64,000 bases of DNA from Escherichia coli. Lineage in GTDB: Bacteria > Pseudomonadota > Gammaproteobacteria > Enterobacterales > Enterobacteriaceae. A program made the position numbers and the translations under genes. The DNA is taken from assembly GCF_003334255.1 (NCBI RefSeq), contig NZ_QOWU01000004.1, one strand, 5' to 3'. Below are positions 1 to 61,700 of this stretch, one piece after another. A model generated the notes under the pieces. It did not search any database, was not told the DNA's origin, and saw nothing but the letters and a program-made list of their open reading frames with translations. How positions within the stretch are numbered: position 1 is the stretch's first letter; each line of letters opens with the position of its first letter.

Positions 1-269
<269 letters not shown>

Positions 270-282
270 TTAACCCTTAGGC

Positions 283-2409
<2,127 letters not shown>

Positions 2410-7684: not shown

Positions 7685-9490
7685 CTACTCAAATTCATCC
7701 CAGCCGTCCAGCTGGCGTCGTTCTTGTTGCATTTCACGCTGGAAAATCTCTTCCAGTTCGCGTCGGGCTTCCCTGGCGCGAGAAATTTGTACGGTATCGG
7801 CATGCATTGGGATGAGCTCTCGCAGCATCCGCATATCCAGGCGGCGAAAATGCAGTTGCGCTCGCTGTGCCTGATGCGGATGCATGCCAAGCGTGACCAG
7901 CGTCTTGCGCCCCAGCTCTAACGCACTGGAGAATGTTTCACGGGAAAACTGCGTCACCCCTGCCTGTAATAACTCATGCGCTTCCACACGTCCGCGCGCT
8001 CGCGCAAGAATATGCAAATGCGGAAAGTGCTGTTGGCATATTTCCACCAGCTTCATGGTGTCTTCCGGCTCGTTACAGGTAATGACGATAGACTCAGCGG
8101 CCTCTGCACCCGCAGAACGTAAAAGATCGACCTGCGTGGCGTCGCCGTAATAAACTTTGTAGCCGTATTTACGCATCAGGTTAACGGCGCTGATATCCCG
8201 CTCCAGCACGGTAATGCGCATTTTATTTGCCATCAGCAAACGACCAATCACCTGACCAAAACGCCCGAAGCCCACGACAATGACCTGGGGTTTATCATCG
8301 TTGACCCACGGTTTTTCGTCTTCTTCTTCCGGTCCGTTAAACTGGCGGGATAGCCATTTATCCACCAGCTTCATCAGCAACGGCGTGGTCATCATGGAAA
8401 GCGTCACCGTCACCAGCAACAACGCCATCTGGTCGCCCTGGAATAAGCGTTGTGAAGAAGCGGTAGAAAAGAGGACAAAGGCAAACTCACCACCCTGACT
8501 CAACACGCCAGCAAACTGCATCCGCTCTGAGCTACGCACGCCATACAATCGCGCCAGCAGATACAGCACGAGAATTTTCACCGCCACCAGCACAACCACG
8601 CTTATCACTACCCACAACAGATGGGTATAAAGCACCCCGAGGTTGAGTGACATGCCGACAGAGATAAAGAACAAACCGAGCAGCAAGCCTTTGAAGGGAT
8701 CGATAGCCGTTTCCAGTTCATGGCGATATTCACTTTCCGCCAGCAGCACGCCCGCAATAAATGTACCGAGCGCCATCGACAGCCCCAGCGCATCCATAAA
8801 CAATGCGGAACCCAACACCAGCAGCAGCGTCGCGGCGGTGAACACTTCCCGCACGCCAGAAGCTGCAATAAAGCGGAATACCGGACGCAGTAAATAGCGC
8901 CCACCAATCAGCATGCCGACAAACGCCAGCACCTTCATGCCGACCTTCATCCAGTCGAAATGTTCGTCTGCCGCCCCCGCCAACAACGGCACTAACGCCA
9001 GTGCTGGGATTACTGCCAGATCCTGAAACAGCAGAACCGAAAACCCGAGCTGGCCGGATTCGCTGCGATTCATCCCTTTCTCACGCATCAATTGCAACGC
9101 CATTGCAGTTGAAGACATCGCAAGGCCAATGCCACCGACCACCGCCGCCTGCCAGGCGAAATCCGTCAGCATCAATAATCCCGCCAGCAACGCCGCGCTT
9201 AACAGCACCTGTGCCGCGCCTACGCCAAAAATCGAACGCCGCAGTTGCCAAAGTTTGGAGGGATTCAACTCAAGGCCGATGATAAACATCAGGAATACCA
9301 CGCCGAGTTCCGAAAAGTGGAGGATCTCATCGACGTCGCTAATAAACCCCAGCCCCCACGGGCCAATTGCAATCCCTGCCAGCAAATATCCCAACACAGC
9401 GCCAATACCCAGCCGCGATGCCAGCGGCACCGCAGCCACCGCCGCGAAGAGAAACAGCACTCCTGCGAGTAAAAAATCGGAACCTTCCAT
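7685..9490 (-). CDS. kefB: Glutathione-regulated K+ efflux antiporter KefB (601 aa)
   Basis: ORF track; N-terminal multi-TM cation:proton antiporter domain, C-terminal KTN/RCK Rossmann motif [14 protein letters not shown]. Confidence 0.95.
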
Positions 9491-55351: not shown

Positions 55352-57487
55352 ATGAGCACCATTGTGATTTTTTTAGCTGCTTTGCTGGCCTGCTCACTAC
55401 TTGCGGGATGGCTGATAAAAGTGCGATCCAGACGGCGTCAGCTGCCCTGGACCAACGCCTTCGCGGATGCGCAAACGCGTAAACTCACACCTGAAGAACG
55501 TAGCGCCGTTGAAAATTATCTTGAGAGCCTGACGCAGGTATTACAGGTGCCTGGCCCAACGGGAGCCAGCGCGGCACCGATCTCTCTGGCGCTGAATGCC
55601 GAAAGCAACAACGTCATGATGCTGACACACGCTATCACGCGTTACGGCATCTCTACCGACGATCCGAATAAATGGCGTTACTACCTCGATTCGGTAGAAG
55701 TCCACCTGCCCCCTTTCTGGGAACAGTACATCAACGATGAGAATACCGTTGAACTGATTCATACCGATTCGCTGCCGCTGGTTATTTCACTCAACGGTCA
55801 TACGCTGCAGGAGTACATGCAGGAAACTCGCAGCTATGCCTTGCAACCTGTTCCGTCAACGCAGGCGTCGATTCGCGGGGAAGAGAGTGAGCAAATCGAG
55901 CTACTCAATATTCGCAAAGAAACGCATGAAGAATATGCGCTGAGTCGTCCGCGCGGGCTGCGTGAAGCGTTGCTGATCGTCGCCTCCTTCCTGATGTTCT
56001 TTTTCTGCCTGATTACCCCGGATGTATTTGTTCCGTGGCTGGCAGGCGGCGCGTTACTGCTGCTGGGCGCAGGTCTGTGGGGGCTATTCGCGCCCCCGGC
56101 AAAATCCTCCCTGCGGGAAATTCATTGTCTGCGCGGTACACCCCGTCGTTGGGGATTGTTTGGCGAAAACGATCAGGAACAGATCAACAATATTTCACTC
56201 GGTATTATCGACCTGGTCTATCCCGCACACTGGCAGCCATACATTGCTCAGGATCTCGGTCAACAAACCGATATCGATATCTATCTCGACCGCCATGTAG
56301 TGCGTCAGGGACGATATCTTTCGCTGCATGATGAAGTAAAAAACTTTCCGTTACAGCACTGGCTGCGCAGTACGATTATCGCTGCGGGCTTGCTGCTGGT
56401 GCTGTTTATGCTGTTATTCTGGATCCCGCTGGATATGCCGCTGAAATTCACTCTCTCATGGATGAAAGGCGCGCAGACCATTGAAGCCACCAGCGTAAAA
56501 CAACTGGCTGACGCTGGCGTGCGGGTAGGCGATACATTGCGTATTAGCGGTACGGGAATGTGTAATATTCGAACTTCCGGAACCTGGAGCGCGAAAACCA
56601 ATTCACCTTTTTTACCGTTTGACTGCTCGCAGATCATCTGGAACGACGCCCGCTCATTGCCATTACCAGAATCTGAACTGGTCAACAAAGCGACGGCATT
56701 GACTGAAGCAGTTAATCGCCAGCTGCACCCTAAACCGGAAGATGAATCTCGCGTCAGTGCCTCATTACGTTCAGCAATTCAAAAATCCGGCATGGTATTG
56801 CTTGATGATTTTGGCGACATTGTACTGAAGACAGCGGATTTATGTTCTGCCAAAGATGACTGTGTGCGACTGAAAAATGCGCTGGTCAATCTCGGCAACA
56901 GTAAAGACTGGGACGCGCTGGTAAAACGCGCCAACGCCGGGAAGCTCGATGGCGTGAATGTGTTATTACGCCCGGTGAGTGCGGAATCGCTGGATAACCT
57001 GGTGGCAACCTCCACCGCGCCGTTTATCACGCATGAAACGGCGCGAGCGGCACAATCACTAAACAGTCCGGCCCCCGGCGGATTCCTGATTGTCAGCGAC
57101 GAAGGCAGCGATTTTGTTGATCAGCCCTGGCCTTCGGCATCACTTTACGACTACCCGCCGCAAGAACAGTGGAACGCTTTCCAGAAACTGGCACAAATGC
57201 TGATGCATACGCCGTTTAACGCCGAGGGTATCGTCACAAAAATCTTCACTGACGCCAATGGTACGCAGCATATTGGCCTTCATCCGATCCCGGATCGTTC
57301 CGGCCTGTGGCGCTATCTCAGCACCACATTGCTGCTACTGACGATGCTGGGTAGCGCCATTTACAATGGCGTACAGGCCTGGCGTCGTTACCAGCGTCAT
57401 CGCACTCGCATGATGGAGATTCAGGCCTATTATGAAAGCTGCCTGAACCCGCAACTGATCACCCCTTCAGAAAGCCTTATCGAATAA
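55352..57487 (+). CDS. igaA: Inner-membrane Rcs-phosphorelay attenuator IgaA/YrfF (711 aa)
   Basis: ORF track; N-terminal TM, several internal TM segments, large periplasmic-type domain. Confidence 0.92.
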   Translation: MSTIVIFLAALLACSLLAGWLIKVRSRRRQLPWTNAFADAQTRKLTPEERSAVENYLESLTQVLQVPGPTGASAAPISLALNAESNNVMMLTHAITRYGISTDDPNKWRYYLDSVEVHLPPFWEQYINDENTVELIHTDSLPLVISLNGHTLQEYMQETRSYALQPVPSTQASIRGEESEQIELLNIRKETHEEYALSRPRGLREALLIVASFLMFFFCLITPDVFVPWLAGGALLLLGAGLWGLFAPPAKSSLREIHCLRGTPRRWGLFGENDQEQINNISLGIIDLVYPAHWQPYIAQDLGQQTDIDIYLDRHVVRQGRYLSLHDEVKNFPLQHWLRSTIIAAGLLLVLFMLLFWIPLDMPLKFTLSWMKGAQTIEATSVKQLADAGVRVGDTLRISGTGMCNIRTSGTWSAKTNSPFLPFDCSQIIWNDARSLPLPESELVNKATALTEAVNRQLHPKPEDESRVSASLRSAIQKSGMVLLDDFGDIVLKTADLCSAKDDCVRLKNALVNLGNSKDWDALVKRANAGKLDGVNVLLRPVSAESLDNLVATSTAPFITHETARAAQSLNSPAPGGFLIVSDEGSDFVDQPWPSASLYDYPPQEQWNAFQKLAQMLMHTPFNAEGIVTKIFTDANGTQHIGLHPIPDRSGLWRYLSTTLLLLTMLGSAIYNGVQAWRRYQRHRTRMMEIQAYYESCLNPQLITPSESLIE

Positions 57488-57551
57488 CACGTTTGCGCGG
57501 CAGGTTATGCTACCCTGTCGCGCAAATTGCTTCACTCTGGAGATTTCCCTC

Positions 57552-58220
57552 ATGCATATCAACATTGCCTGGCAGGACGTAGATACCGTTCTGCTGGATA
57601 TGGACGGCACGTTGCTCGACCTCGCCTTCGATAACTATTTCTGGCAAAAGCTGGTGCCTGAAACATGGGGCGCGAAAAACGGGGTTACGCCACAGGAAGC
57701 GATGGAATATATGCGCCAGCAATATCACGACGTACAGCATACGCTAAACTGGTACTGTCTTGATTACTGGAGTGAGCAACTGGGTCTGGATATCTGTGCG
57801 ATGACCACCGAGATGGGACCGCGTGCCGTACTGCGTGAAGATACCATTCCGTTTCTTGAGGCACTGAAAGCCAGCGGTAAGCAGCGAATTTTGCTCACCA
57901 ATGCGCATCCGCACAACCTGGCGGTAAAACTTGAGCATACCGGTCTGGACGCACACCTTGATTTATTACTTTCCACCCACACATTTGGTTATCCGAAAGA
58001 GGATCAGCGGTTATGGCATGCGGTGGCCGAAGCTACGGGTCTGAAAGCTGAAAGAACGCTGTTTATTGATGACAGCGAAGCGATTCTCGATGCTGCCGCG
58101 CAATTTGGTATTCGTTACTGCCTCGGCGTGACTAATCCTGATTCCGGGATTGCCGAGAAACAGTATCAACGCCATCCGTCACTGAATGACTACCGCCGCC
58201 TGATCCCCTCGCTAATGTGA
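57552..58220 (+). CDS. yrfG: HAD-superfamily nucleotidase YrfG (222 aa)
   Basis: Track ORF 57507..58220 trimmed to ATG 57552 after GGAG (MHINIAWQDVDTVLLDMDGTLLD...); HAD motif I DMDGTL. Confidence 0.9.
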   Translation: MHINIAWQDVDTVLLDMDGTLLDLAFDNYFWQKLVPETWGAKNGVTPQEAMEYMRQQYHDVQHTLNWYCLDYWSEQLGLDICAMTTEMGPRAVLREDTIPFLEALKASGKQRILLTNAHPHNLAVKLEHTGLDAHLDLLLSTHTFGYPKEDQRLWHAVAEATGLKAERTLFIDDSEAILDAAAQFGIRYCLGVTNPDSGIAEKQYQRHPSLNDYRRLIPSLM

Positions 58221-58230
58221 AGGAGACGCC

Positions 58231-58632
58231 ATGAAAGAGAAACCTGCTGTTGAGGTTCGACTGGATAAATGGCTATGGGCTGCCCGTTTTTATAAAACCC
58301 GCGCGCTGGCCCGTGAAATGATTGAAGGCGGTAAGGTGCATTACAACGGGCAGCGCAGCAAGCCGAGCAAAATCGTCGAGCTGAATGCCACGCTCACTCT
58401 GCGCCAGGGAAATGACGAACGCACGGTGATTGTAAAGGCGATTACTGAACAGCGTCGCCCCGCCAGCGAGGCAGCCTTGCTGTATGAAGAGACTGCGGAA
58501 AGTGTAGAGAAACGCGAAAAAATGGCGCTGGCACGTAAACTTAATGCCTTAACCATGCCGCACCCGGACCGACGCCCGGACAAAAAAGAGCGCCGCGACC
58601 TGTTACGATTTAAACACGGCGACAGTGAATAA
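58231..58632 (+). CDS. hslR: Heat-shock protein Hsp15, S4-domain ribosome-associated protein (133 aa)
   Basis: ORF track; S4 RNA-binding motif (VRLDKWLWAARFYKTRALAREMIEGGKVHYNG). Confidence 0.95.
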   Translation: MKEKPAVEVRLDKWLWAARFYKTRALAREMIEGGKVHYNGQRSKPSKIVELNATLTLRQGNDERTVIVKAITEQRRPASEAALLYEETAESVEKREKMALARKLNALTMPHPDRRPDKKERRDLLRFKHGDSE

Positions 58633-58656
58633 CTGTCACCTGCAAGAGAGATGATT

Positions 58657-59535
58657 ATGCCGCAACATGACCAATTACATCGCTATCTGTTTGAAAACTT
58701 TGCCGTGCGCGGCGAACTGGTAACCGTTTCGGAAACCCTGCAACAGATCCTTGAGAACCACGATTATCCGCAGCCCGTTAAAAACGTGCTGGCAGAACTG
58801 CTGGTTGCGACCAGCCTGTTAACCGCTACGCTGAAGTTTGATGGTGATATCACCGTACAGCTGCAGGGCGACGGTCCGATGAATCTGGCGGTTATTAACG
58901 GTAACAATAACCAGCAGATGCGCGGTGTGGCGCGCGTGCAGGGCGAAATTCCAGAAAATGCCGACCTGAAAACGCTGGTCGGCAATGGTTACGTGGTGAT
59001 CACCATTACCCCGAGCGAAGGCGAACGCTATCAGGGCGTAGTTGGTCTGGAAGGTGATACCCTGGCGGCCTGCCTGGAAGATTACTTTATGCGTTCTGAA
59101 CAGCTGCCGACGCGCCTGTTTATTCGCACCGGCGACGTAGACGGCAAACCGGCTGCAGGCGGTATGTTGTTGCAGGTAATGCCTGCGCAAAATGCCCAGC
59201 AGGACGACTTTGACCACCTGGCGACGCTAACCGAAACCATCAAAACCGAAGAACTGCTGACCTTACCGGCAAACGAAGTGTTGTGGCGTTTGTATCACGA
59301 AGAAGAGGTGACGGTTTACGATCCGCAGGATGTGGAGTTCAAATGCACCTGCTCGCGTGAACGTTGCGCCGATGCGCTGAAAACGCTGCCTGATGAAGAA
59401 GTTGATAGCATCCTGGCGGAAGATGGCGAAATTGACATGCATTGTGATTACTGCGGTAACCACTATCTGTTCAATGCGATGGATATTGCTGAAATCCGCA
59501 ACAACGCGTCTCCGGCAGATCCGCAAGTTCATTAA
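58657..59535 (+). CDS. hslO: Redox-regulated chaperone Hsp33 (292 aa; ATG at 58651 would add 2 codons)
   Basis: ORF track 58651..59535; C-terminal zinc centre CTCSRERC...CDYCG. Confidence 0.95.
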
Positions 59536-59544
59536 TGAGTATGT

Positions 59545-59574
59545 CCGGCAGAGAGGGCTCTGCCGGATTTTACG
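59545..59574 (+). terminator. Rho-independent terminator after hslO
   Basis: Hairpin ccggcagagagggctctgccgg followed by ATTTTACG. Confidence 0.7.
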
Positions 59575-59597
59575 ACTAATACACCTGATGCGCTTTG

Positions 59598-61322
59598 TCA
59601 CTCATTCAGATTCACATTCAGCCTTTCACCATCCACTACAAGATCGCGCCACGCTTTAGGCTTCGTCCCCAGTTTTCCATCCTTCGCAGCTGTGAGTAAT
59701 TTTTCTTTCGTTATTTCGTTCGGAAGTAAACTCATATCAAGCGCGTCCCATTCTTTTCTGTCTGAGTCAAAGCCATAGACAATGACTCTGTCATCATTAA
59801 AAGCAAACAGGATCCGCTCCGCCTGACCATCACTATTCAGATCTTGCTCGACCAGGACGCAGGCGTCTTTTTCAATACAGGTCATCACGTTATAGCGATC
59901 CTGGATTAAGGCCGACCAGAATGTCGCATCAGGTTTAACAGAACCAGGGGCAATTAACACATTATCGGCTAATACTTTTTCCGATACCTGTTGCTGAAGA
60001 TGTTGCTCTCCATCTAACGCCATCAGCAGATCCCGCGCGCGTTTCGGGTCTTTCATAAACCCGGCATCGCTTTTCAGCGACTCAAGCGCAGCACGTCCAT
60101 AGCGACCGCTCTGCTCGAGCATGTAGATAGTTACCTGGTCTGACGTGTTTTTGCCGCTCTGATAACGCGCCATATGGCTGTTCACGCTAATGCGCATACT
60201 GTCCAGCACCGGCGAATTAAGAAGCACCAGTATCACCAACACCAATAACGAAACCGCAAGGTTCACTTTGCCCTGAAGAACAACGGGATTTTGCCCTTTA
60301 CGCCAGACGATGCTGACAAAATACCCCAGCGACCACACCAGTAACACCAGCACCGCCAGCACGCCCTGCAAGCGGTCGACAGTCCAGCCGTACTGAGCGA
60401 CCCGCAGCCATAACGCCCAGGCGGCGACGAACACATACAGCGGAGCAACCAGCAAAGCGGTTTTAATCAGGCAACGCAACGGCCCTGTCCAGGGAAGTGA
60501 CGCTTTTTGCGGATCGCGGACAATAGCCATTAAGATCAATTGCAAAAAGGCCAGCGTCAACAGCAACCCGGCGGCGGAGATGTGGCGAGAAATCGCGCTC
60601 AGGCCCGTAAACGGCAGGGTGATGATAAACATCAGGGTTAGCAATGATACTAACGGCAGCAACCCCGTGGCGATTAACGTGAACAACTTTTGAATAGAGT
60701 CGATTAAACGTGACTGTGTTCGCGCGAGGATCACCGCCAGCGCGGTAACCAGACCTAACGTGAGATAAATAAACCAGTCGGTTGCAAAAAAGAGCGTATT
60801 GAAAAACGTGATGCCAACAAGTTTAAACAACTCACTCCACAGTAAAAGCACCAGCCACGTCAAGCCATTGGCGAGAAAAATCACCAGTAATATAAGTACG
60901 TTATGCCATACTGACTGGTAAAAATAGCGATAGCGGCTACTGTCATTGCGGATGCGAAGGCTTTGTTGTATCCACGGTAGCAACAACATTGCCATCAACA
61001 GCAGATAGCAACCAAAATCCCAAAGCGCCTTTTCAGCTCTCCAGGGGTTCATGCCATCAGTTTGCCACTTCAGCCAGCCGCTCATCCCCAGCGTGGCAAT
61101 AAACACTAGCGCCAGCCATCCCCAAAGGCGCTTCTGTTTAAAAGAGATCACGGAGAAGAGTAAAACGGATGAAAACGCGACGGTCGCAGGCACGCCATAA
61201 ACAATCCAACTGTGATTTTTTCCGGAAAGCCAGGCGATCAGCAGGTAGCAAACCAGACCCTGAAGTAATCCGGTAGCAATCATCCCCCAGCGTGTTGCGG
61301 GTGAAAGTTCAACGTTATCCAT
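59598..61322 (-). CDS. yhgE: Large polytopic inner-membrane protein YhgE (574 aa), function unknown
   Basis: ORF track; many hydrophobic segments plus a hydrophilic C-terminal domain. Confidence 0.85.
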
Positions 61323-61564
61323 GTTGGTTATCCAGAATCAAAAGGTGGGTTAATTATCGCATCCGGGCAGTAGTATTTTGCTTTTTTCAGAAAATAATCA
61401 AAAAAAGTTAGCGTGGTGAATCGATACTTTACCGGTTGAATTTGCATCAATTTCATTCAGGAATGCGATTCCACTCACAATATTCCCGCCATATAAACCA
61501 AGATTTAACCTTTTGAGAACATTTTCCACACCTAAAATGCTATTTCTGCGATAATAGCAACCGT

Positions 61565-61584
61565 TTCGTGACAGGAATCACGGA
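61565..61584 (+). promoter_or_regulatory. CRP-like site in the pckA promoter region
   Basis: tcGTGACaggaaTCACGga fits TGTGA-N6-TCACA, ~125 bp upstream of pckA start. Confidence 0.45.
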
Positions 61585-61700
61585 GTTTTTTGTCAAATAT
61601 GAATTTCTCCAGATACGTAAATCTATGAGCCTTGTCGCGGTTAACACCCCCAAAAAGACTTTACTATTCAGGCAATACATATTGGCTAAGGAGCAGTGAA

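Follow-up and report, generated by a model that had tools for sequence, protein, structure and literature searches.

The gene yhgE was studied within a window of 64,000 nucleotides of Escherichia coli DNA (RefSeq assembly GCF_003334255.1, contig NZ_QOWU01000004.1), and all positions refer to that whole stretch (Table 1). It stands alone as a transcriptional unit of one gene, and its product belongs to the DUF4153 family. Its 1725-nt reading frame has exactly the limits of the RefSeq CDS in the annotation of a strain that is identical over the stretch, and the coding sequence is 100% identical to that of E. coli K-12 MG1655; the gene name and the 574-residue product given by the initial annotation thus agree with both the reference genome and the list of open reading frames. 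The RefSeq name of the product is "DUF4153 domain-containing protein". As the same annotation stated, yhgE lies beside pckA. The two genes are divergently transcribed and are separated by a spacer of 378 bp, with the ATG of pckA at 61701, and on the other side hslO converges on yhgE. The genes igaA, yrfG, hslR, and hslO (+ strand) form the upstream neighbourhood, and envZ and ompR lie beyond pckA. Searches for RNA families in and around yhgE gave nothing credible.

Table 1. Coordinates of yhgE, of the domains and motifs of its product, and of the adjacent regulatory site.
Feature	Position (nt)	Strand	Residues	Description	Basis
yhgE CDS	59598..61322	-	1-574	574 codons plus stop, ATG start	ORF list; RefSeq CDS with the same limits
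Membrane domain	60219..61322	-	1-368		AlphaFold2 model, hydropathy scan, loop charges
Pfam DUF4153 (PF13687) match	60078..61169	-	52-415		hmmscan
TM helices 1-6			8-32, 40-57, 64-88, 93-123, 130-168, 182-202		AlphaFold2 model
TM helices 7-11			204-239, 250-268, 280-311, 315-339, 346-368		AlphaFold2 model
Short interfacial helix			173-180		AlphaFold2 model
LPFTGL motif	60600..60617	-	236-241	predicted periplasmic end of TM7	
LRVxQYGWTxxR motif	60372..60407	-	306-317	most conserved motif of the family; tight TM9-TM10 turn, predicted periplasmic side	
SP(L/V)LDxxRISVxS(Q/H)xAR stretch	60165..60215	-	370-386	just after TM11	
C-terminal soluble domain	59601..60200	-	375-574	putative divergent DUF7057-type, predicted periplasmic	AlphaFold2 models
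Parts of the C-terminal domain			375-483, 488-532, 539-547, 561-568	helical part, four-stranded sheet, helix, hairpin	
Cysteine pair and loop	59817..59879	-	C482/C488; D494-L-N-S-D498-G-Q-A-E502	DxNxDGxxE, calcium-binding type	
CRP-binding site	61464..61479	-		yhgE-pckA spacer, ~140 bp upstream of the yhgE ATG; exact match to the ETEC ChIP site	

The reading frame is a real gene and not a chance ORF, because it is universal in E. coli genomes, has 2043 cluster-representative homologues, and evolves with an omega of 0.27 (<1). In a megablast comparison, the yhgE region was found at no less than 80% of the gene length in all 5426 complete E. coli genomes (5426/5426). The start codon is supported by the alignment of the N-terminal methionine in at least 90% of 84 homologues. 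Neither the gene nor its family is new; both are on record as uncharacterised. Membership in Pfam DUF4153 was established using hmmscan, with an E value of 2.6e-31 over model positions 3-372 of 373; DUF4153 was the only name that Pfam and RefSeq gave, in keeping with the initial description of a large membrane protein of unknown function in which no catalytic motif could be recognised. The C-terminal 160 residues gave no Pfam match. The homologues were obtained using phmmer against 1.84 billion cluster representatives, which returned the 2043 proteins at E<=1e-3, 418 of them at E<=1e-30. Among the 150 matches listed of these 2043, most were 560-620 residues long with both domains aligned. Members or their loci came from Enterobacterales, Xanthomonadales, Burkholderiales, Microbulbifer, and Halothiobacillaceae, as well as from Sphingomonadales, Rhodobacteraceae, Kiloniella, and Bradyrhizobium. 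The architecture of YhgE is kept across Alpha-, Beta-, and Gammaproteobacteria, and the family is a proteobacterial one with a fixed two-domain layout.

Structure prediction was performed using AlphaFold2 with an alignment of 84 sequences as the input for the whole chain, and it yielded a model with a mean pLDDT of 93.1 and a pTM of 0.87. The many hydrophobic segments and the hydrophilic C-terminal domain of the initial annotation were recovered both by this model, which has 11 long helices followed by a mixed alpha/beta domain, and by a hydropathy scan, in which the protein was hydrophobic up to about residue 380 and then ended in a hydrophilic tail of ~195 residues (25 K+R and 32 D+E). With 11 helices, the termini would lie on opposite sides of the membrane. 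Loop charges were counted in the 84 homologues for the N-in orientation: the cytoplasmic loops carried a mean of 10.4 K+R with a net charge of +4.6, and the opposite, periplasmic loops carried 6.0 K+R with a net charge of -0.7. This bias, the pair C482/C488 with the even cysteine counts described below, and the calcium-type loop together favour the N-in/C-out orientation. A topology of 11 transmembrane helices with a cytoplasmic N-terminus and a periplasmic C-terminal domain is therefore predicted with high confidence; no experimental topology record for YhgE was found in the literature searched. Profile self-comparison detected no significant internal repeat in the membrane domain.

The C-terminal domain was also modelled alone and was predicted as confidently as in the whole chain (pLDDT 93.3). 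Judging only from the high pTM of the whole-chain model, its position against the periplasmic side of the helices is probably fixed. Its putative assignment to DUF7057 (PF23167) rests on the homologues, 6 of 42 aligned C-terminal domains matching that profile with a best E value of 1.9e-9; the E. coli copy had no Pfam match even at E<=10. Entries of the AlphaFold Database (AFDB) that are named DUF7057 superpose on the full YhgE model. Cysteines 482 and 488 are each conserved in at least 90% of the 84 sequences. The number of cysteines in the domain is two in 40 of the 84 sequences, four in 30, and even in 70 (70/84), as expected for disulfides in an oxidising compartment. A C482-C488 disulfide probably holds the domain, as far as the sequence patterns indicate. 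Residues 494-502 form a putative loop of the calcium-binding type, in which the motif itself suggests that calcium may be bound; D494 and D498 are conserved in at least 90% of the sequences of a second alignment of 25. When 134 representatives of at least 430 residues were scanned, the cysteine pair was absent in about a dozen, and the DxNxDGxxE loop persisted in the cysteine-less members.

Residue conservation was assessed in the 84 sequences, which share 23-44% identity with E. coli YhgE, and in the set of 25. Two columns, R307 and G409, were invariant in the larger set. Conservation of at least 90% was found for W139, W156, L161, L165, F166, F184, P223, F232, L236, G240, Q310, G312, and R317, and likewise for P371, Q383 (His in E. 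coli), R386, G406, A412, L413, C482, C488, and W525. Within the LPFTGL motif, L236 and G240 belong to this group, and P237 reached at least 90% in the set of 25. The QYG core of the LRVxQYGWTxxR motif was present in 90 of 124 full-length representatives, and the exact pattern R[VI]xQYGWTxxR in 52 of the 124. In the set of 25, R377 was invariant and D374 was at least 90% conserved. In the model, the conserved stretch at residues 370-386 leads into the C-terminal domain as a helix at 375-388, and a further conserved motif, GRxGxxAL, lies early in the same domain. No Asp, Glu, His, or Ser was found among the invariant and near-invariant columns of the membrane domain in the 84 sequences, and its conserved charged residues are arginines at helix ends only. 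Most of the polar residues with strong conservation, when placed by their position along the predicted helices, lie at the boundary between the outer leaflet and the periplasm. Conserved positions occur on the predicted cytoplasmic side as well, namely W139, N141, R201, and the NAVxQDG...PYP consensus of loop 8-9.

Comparisons with known families and folds were performed at the levels of sequence and structure. The initial annotation had named a clear homology to a known transporter family as the result that would overturn it; several kinds of search were run, and each time such a homology failed to appear. No Pfam or NCBIfam profile of the known transporter superfamilies (MFS, APC, ABC permeases, RND, DMT, and others) matched YhgE, and a known transporter fold was likewise rejected, there being neither a match to a solved transporter nor an internal structural repeat. 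NCBIfam searches with YhgE and 10 diverse relatives gave only chance-level matches far under the cut-offs. Neither PADLOC (defence systems) nor PHROGs (phage proteins) matched YhgE, and searches of PDB sequences with YhgE and with the family profile gave no match for the whole protein. Foldseek against AFDB50 returned only DUF4153 and DUF7057 proteins among the best 50 matches. We conclude from the model that the fold of YhgE has no solved counterpart detectable with the tools used.

The closest likeness is to inner-membrane proteins that combine Pfam DUF4153 with a C-terminal DUF7057 domain: most listed representatives have the same length and two-domain layout as YhgE, and AlphaFold Database entries of this family superpose on the YhgE model with TM-scores of 0.7-0.9. 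YhgE is a member and so is no different in kind; only the C-terminal domain of the E. coli protein has diverged too far for the DUF7057 HMM. Like the FG-GAP/VCBS blades of proteins such as CRTAC1, YhgE has a DxNxDGxxE loop with a hydrophobic strand after it. The profile of the C-terminal domain aligned this loop to five blades of the CRTAC1 propeller, at a whole-sequence E value of 0.069, which is not significant, and Pfam FG-GAP_3 matched one of 42 members at E<=1e-3 and four of 42 at E<=0.1, the E. coli protein not being among the matches at E<=1e-3. Whereas FG-GAP/VCBS proteins are seven-bladed propellers, YhgE has one loop in a small alpha/beta domain of four strands and helices. Membership in that repeat family was rejected, because there is a single loop (494-502) with no tandem repeats and the likeness is limited to it. 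The sheet-and-helix part of the domain also superposes on small periplasmic domains of the BLIP-like or PepSY-like type (PDB 4fr9, 3u1w, and 4hbr) over 70-82 residues at 2.5-3.4 A, and 3u1w is described as a calcium-binding periplasmic protein.

Three further candidate families were rejected. GT-C glycosyltransferases and the O-antigen ligases and polymerases share with YhgE an overall plan in which many bundled helices precede a C-terminal domain in the periplasm and basic residues lie where the membrane meets the periplasm; taking an acidic motif in a long first extracytoplasmic loop together with the GT-C fold as the mark of a GT-C enzyme, YhgE does not belong among them. The Cache superfamily, the former Pfam clan of DUF4153, is characterised by an extracellular alpha/beta sensor fold between two transmembrane helices, and the DUF4153 region of YhgE is almost wholly transmembrane helices in the model; Upadhyay et al. 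(2016) had already judged DUF4153 unrelated to Cache and removed it from the clan (PMC4822843). The YhgE/Pip "phage infection protein" family of Firmicutes gave no NCBIfam or Pfam match at E<=1. That family and the Lactococcus pilin gene yhgE have only the gene name in common with E. coli yhgE, and the proteins are unrelated.

Gene neighbourhoods were compared by clustering the neighbours of about 48 of 80 fetched loci, and further contigs were inspected. The 84- and 25-sequence alignments contained no stretch conserved enough to seed a genome scan, and the loci were located with nine sequences sharing QYGWTPER, so that the sample is biased to that motif variant. The hslO-yhgE-pckA arrangement is conserved in Enterobacteriaceae. 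In Sphingomonadales, the homologue adjoins gatA and gatB, and in some cases another paralogue lies beside it; in Rhodobacteraceae it is followed by an H-NOX gene and a GGDEF gene; and in Microbulbifer it lies between an RpiR-type regulator before it and an MFS gene after it. Other lineages have unrelated neighbours, among them beta-oxidation genes, an RND pump, spermidine synthase, uracil-DNA glycosylase, and 6-phosphogluconate dehydrogenase. Neighbours were kept within a lineage only, and no partner gene was common to several lineages among the loci examined, so the context gives no functional lead. Sphingomonadales are known to lack LPS, and the occurrence of homologues in them speaks against a function dedicated to LPS or enterobacterial common antigen.

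The rate of evolution of yhgE was compared with that of its neighbours because YhgE appears among the hotspots of phylogenetic incongruence that Touchon et al. (2009) listed for E. coli and attributed to diversifying selection (PMC2617782). Identity to K-12 fell to 90-95% for yhgE in 112 genomes; for pckA, hslO, and igaA, no genome was below 95%. Pairwise comparison of K-12 and eight alleles gave a mean dN of 0.024, a dS of 0.086, and an omega of 0.28 for yhgE, against a dN of 0.0012-0.0029, a dS of 0.04-0.10, and an omega of 0.012-0.071 for six neighbouring genes. Within E. coli, the dN of yhgE is thus ~10x that of its syntenic neighbours at a similar dS, and the mean amino-acid difference is 4.6% versus 0.26-0.66%; divergence from K-12 was the basis for choosing the alleles, which inflates absolute divergence and should affect omega little. 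Between genera the same disparity is seen, the identity to the syntenic Citrobacter orthologue being 56-57% for YhgE versus 83-96% for the neighbours, and that to Atlantibacter 31% versus 72-93%.

All 18 intact alleles sampled (18/18) encode distinct proteins. A parsimony count over these alleles gave the overall omega of 0.27 cited above, with 0.15 in the helices, 0.36 in the C-terminal domain, 0.54 in the cytoplasmic loops, and 0.78 in the periplasmic loops. Change is therefore mostly in the loops and the periplasmic domain, with a small set of residues fixed, and the overall value means that the gene is still under purifying selection. Numerous two-state sites show 3-5 changes on the tree, a recurrence that suggests recombination among yhgE alleles. 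A counting test for positive selection by site, underpowered with 18 alleles, found no significant site (all p>0.19). The data show weak constraint outside a small fixed core, and diversifying selection is not claimed. Natural disruptions occur: the gene has an internal stop in YA-1 and carries an IS insertion in two strains. For a universally retained gene, protein evolution ~10x faster than that of its neighbours was unexpected.

Taken as a whole, these results are best explained, tentatively, by a protein with 11 transmembrane helices and a periplasmic C-terminal domain that would act as a non-catalytic module facing the periplasm and that evolves fast around a fixed core; this reading is possible rather than probable. 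With low confidence, YhgE may be a binding or translocation module of that kind rather than a classical solute transporter coupled to ions, a hydrolase, or a transferase. The PFTGL and LRVxQYGWTxxR motifs, the residues P371/R377/Q383/R386, and GRxGxxAL, gathered at the periplasmic boundary, would form a putative recognition site. What is bound there, between the bundle and a calcium-stabilised cap formed by the C-terminal domain, could be an anionic head group such as that of a lipid-anchored or envelope-derived molecule. The recognition of an anionic group would suit the site, because conservation there falls on Arg, Gln, Trp, Tyr, Gly, and Pro rather than on Asp, Glu, His, or Ser. A tight turn between two helices is flanked by R307 and R317, whose role may instead be the purely structural one of stabilising that turn.

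Four other accounts were weighed against the non-catalytic module. A new family of solute transporters or permeases, as older automatic annotations ('transport protein') have it, in which YhgE would carry a small molecule over the inner membrane with the periplasmic domain as a gate or substrate-binding lid, would fit the polytopic model of 11 helices, the titles 'Transport' and 'Transport protein' of some homologue records (Hafnia and Lysobacter entries), and a possible substrate entrance made by the conserved Arg and Gln at the membrane boundary; TM3-4 and TM9-10 may also be faintly alike (hhalign P 0.002). We consider a transporter unlikely, however, since no transporter was matched in Pfam or NCBIfam or among solved structures by sequence or fold, no internal repeat was significant, the membrane domain lacks any conserved Asp or Glu that could serve proton or sodium coupling, and no binding-protein, ATPase, or catabolic neighbours are conserved across lineages. 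The make-up of the conserved residues argues against a proton- or sodium-coupled carrier and against a typical hydrolase or transferase. The second account is that of a membrane-embedded enzyme acting on a lipid-linked substrate at the periplasmic leaflet in the manner of GT-C enzymes or O-antigen ligases and polymerases, its arginines binding (pyro)phosphate. WaaL and Wzy, which bind undecaprenyl pyrophosphate via arginines of their periplasmic loops, are a precedent from general knowledge, and the modelled many-helix bundle with a periplasmic C-terminal domain and the Arg, Gln, and aromatic residues conserved at the periplasmic boundary would be consistent with such an enzyme, which is nevertheless distinctly improbable.

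The two remaining accounts turn on the rate of evolution. YhgE could be an inner-membrane entry receptor for phages, bacteriocins, or contact-dependent toxins, in which an arms race would drive diversification and the shuffling of alleles; the raised dN at a dS like that of the six neighbours, the distinct proteins of all intact alleles, the higher omega in the loops and the periplasmic domain than in the helices, and the recurrent two-state changes suggestive of recombination at a reported incongruence hotspot (PMC2617782) would all follow. Yet omega is below 1 in every region, no site passes the counting test, the alleles were chosen by divergence from K-12, and the divergence between genera, which is also very high, is more simply explained by relaxed constraint; moreover, the papers found mention no such role, and PADLOC and PHROGs do not link the family to phage biology. 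The probability of a receptor is low, lower than that of the enzyme. Alternatively, the protein may be weakly constrained and largely dispensable, under mild selection for a structural or condition-specific role and with no specific ligand, in agreement with an omega high relative to the neighbours, the natural disruptions, the loss of the start codon in an ampicillin-evolved line, the phenotype of which was attributed to cyaA (PMC7394356), and a transposon mutant that was viable with only a long lag (PMC5996734). Against this stand the presence of the gene in every complete genome compared, the persistence of the architecture, with its invariant residues, in Alpha-, Beta-, and Gammaproteobacteria alike, the confidence with which the fold is predicted, and the purifying selection that omega implies; we regard dispensability as improbable, somewhat less so than the enzyme. 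The most specific form of the preferred module is also the least probable of all: an unsolved fold that would hold an anionic, lipid-anchored envelope molecule under a calcium-stabilised cap and whose exposed surface would be targeted by phages or toxins crossing the inner membrane, a targeting that would account for the much faster diversification and recombination of this core gene relative to its neighbours.

Assigning a function to yhgE would leave one fewer unknown in the bacterial genome that has been studied most, and thousands of homologues in Proteobacteria would gain an annotation with it. The present analysis adds a topology model and a measure of the fast evolution, and it excludes membership in the known transporter, GT-C, Cache, and YhgE/Pip families. 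The residues to mutate are R307, Q310, R317, R377, R386, C482/C488, and D494/D498. If the rapid change stems from conflict with phages or toxins, YhgE would count as a new entry factor at the inner membrane; if not, it would be an ordinary, weakly constrained envelope protein.

The literature search found E. coli and Salmonella yhgE in incidental mentions only and no functional study; most papers under the name 'yhgE' concern unrelated Gram-positive genes. The CRP site in the spacer was assigned to 'yhgE/pck' by ChIP in ETEC (PMC4287617) and may regulate yhgE, pckA, or both. A GalR motif has also been assigned to yhgE/pck (PMC5110547), and it actually lies inside pckA, at 61762-61776. Weak sigma-factor SELEX peaks were reported between hslO and yhgE (PMC5493296), and in Salmonella yhgE belongs to the SprB regulon (PMC6726612). 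The expression of yhgE was 3.3-fold lower at a growth transition of O157 in glucose minimal medium (PMC2241611).

Within E. coli, amino-acid changes were found to accumulate in yhgE approximately ten times faster than in its six syntenic neighbours, with an omega of 0.27 for yhgE versus 0.01-0.07 for the neighbours. This comparison was performed for window positions 59598-61322 (yhgE) against the region 55352-63323, using the genome loci L086-L104. Across enterobacterial genera, the identity of yhgE was only 31-61%, while that of the neighbours was 72-96%. The yhgE allele tree shows homoplasies that point to recombination. Natural disruptions of the gene were also identified. In strain YA-1, yhgE is interrupted by a stop at codon 388 and carries a pseudogene annotation, and in two other strains (megablast matches H1 and H9) an IS1414 or IS1 element is inserted within the gene.

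The spacer between hslO and yhgE appears to be a variable junction. In many E. coli alleles the last 21 nt of yhgE differ from those of K-12, as deduced from megablast matches that begin at query base 22. In strain C9, hslO and yhgE are separated by an insQ/TnpB element plus a transposase remnant. Coordinates of these and other features are listed in the table below.

Coordinates of features in the window and in the compared genome loci (each locus in its own coordinates)
Feature	Locus	Position
hslO-yhgE spacer and yhgE 3' end	window	59536-59618
yhgE with internal stop, strain YA-1	L092	4301-6025
insQ/TnpB element and transposase remnant, strain C9	L094	2773-4182
GalR-type motif	window	61762-61776
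pckA-envZ spacer	window	63324-63398
RelE/ParE and NadS insert	L089, L092, L093	about 8120-8815
Sphingomonas/Sphingopyxis multi-ORF clusters	L042	5617-9455
	L033	5695-6159
Rhodobacteraceae DUF4153 loci	L037	6734-8343
	L060	5095-6710
	L069	9860-11481

The start of pckA was placed at a TTG (61632) in the mechanical ORF list versus an ATG at 61701 in RefSeq, and the RefSeq start implies that the 563-aa ORF is too long by 23 residues. A GalR-type motif, assigned to 'yhgE/pck' in PMC5110547, is located within the pckA coding sequence and outside the spacer. In some E. coli strains, a RelE/ParE toxin gene and a NadS gene are inserted between pckA and envZ; this pair is absent from the window (K-12). 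In one E. coli record, the entire igaA-pckA region occurs as a copy on a replicon designated a plasmid, and in one E. coli genome the region was matched at two places; such copies may represent misassembly or duplication.

Among DUF4153 relatives in other lineages, the Sphingomonas and Sphingopyxis loci have one or two additional family members immediately upstream of the DUF4153 gene in the same orientation. These ORFs are tandem paralogues or fragments, and gatA and gatB adjoin the cluster. Three Rhodobacteraceae loci carry two co-oriented genes downstream of the DUF4153 gene, one for a 195-aa protein judged from its sequence to be H-NOX-like and one for a GGDEF-motif protein of approximately 340 aa. 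This arrangement may reflect a connection with NO and c-di-GMP signalling that is specific to the lineage. In the AlphaFold DB fold search, the whole bacterial model was matched by A0AA38XYI1 (TM-score 0.74), a protein of 739 aa that is named 'DUF7057 domain-containing protein' and assigned to the fungus Knufia peltigerae. Its presence there could be due to contamination of the fungal assembly or horizontal transfer.
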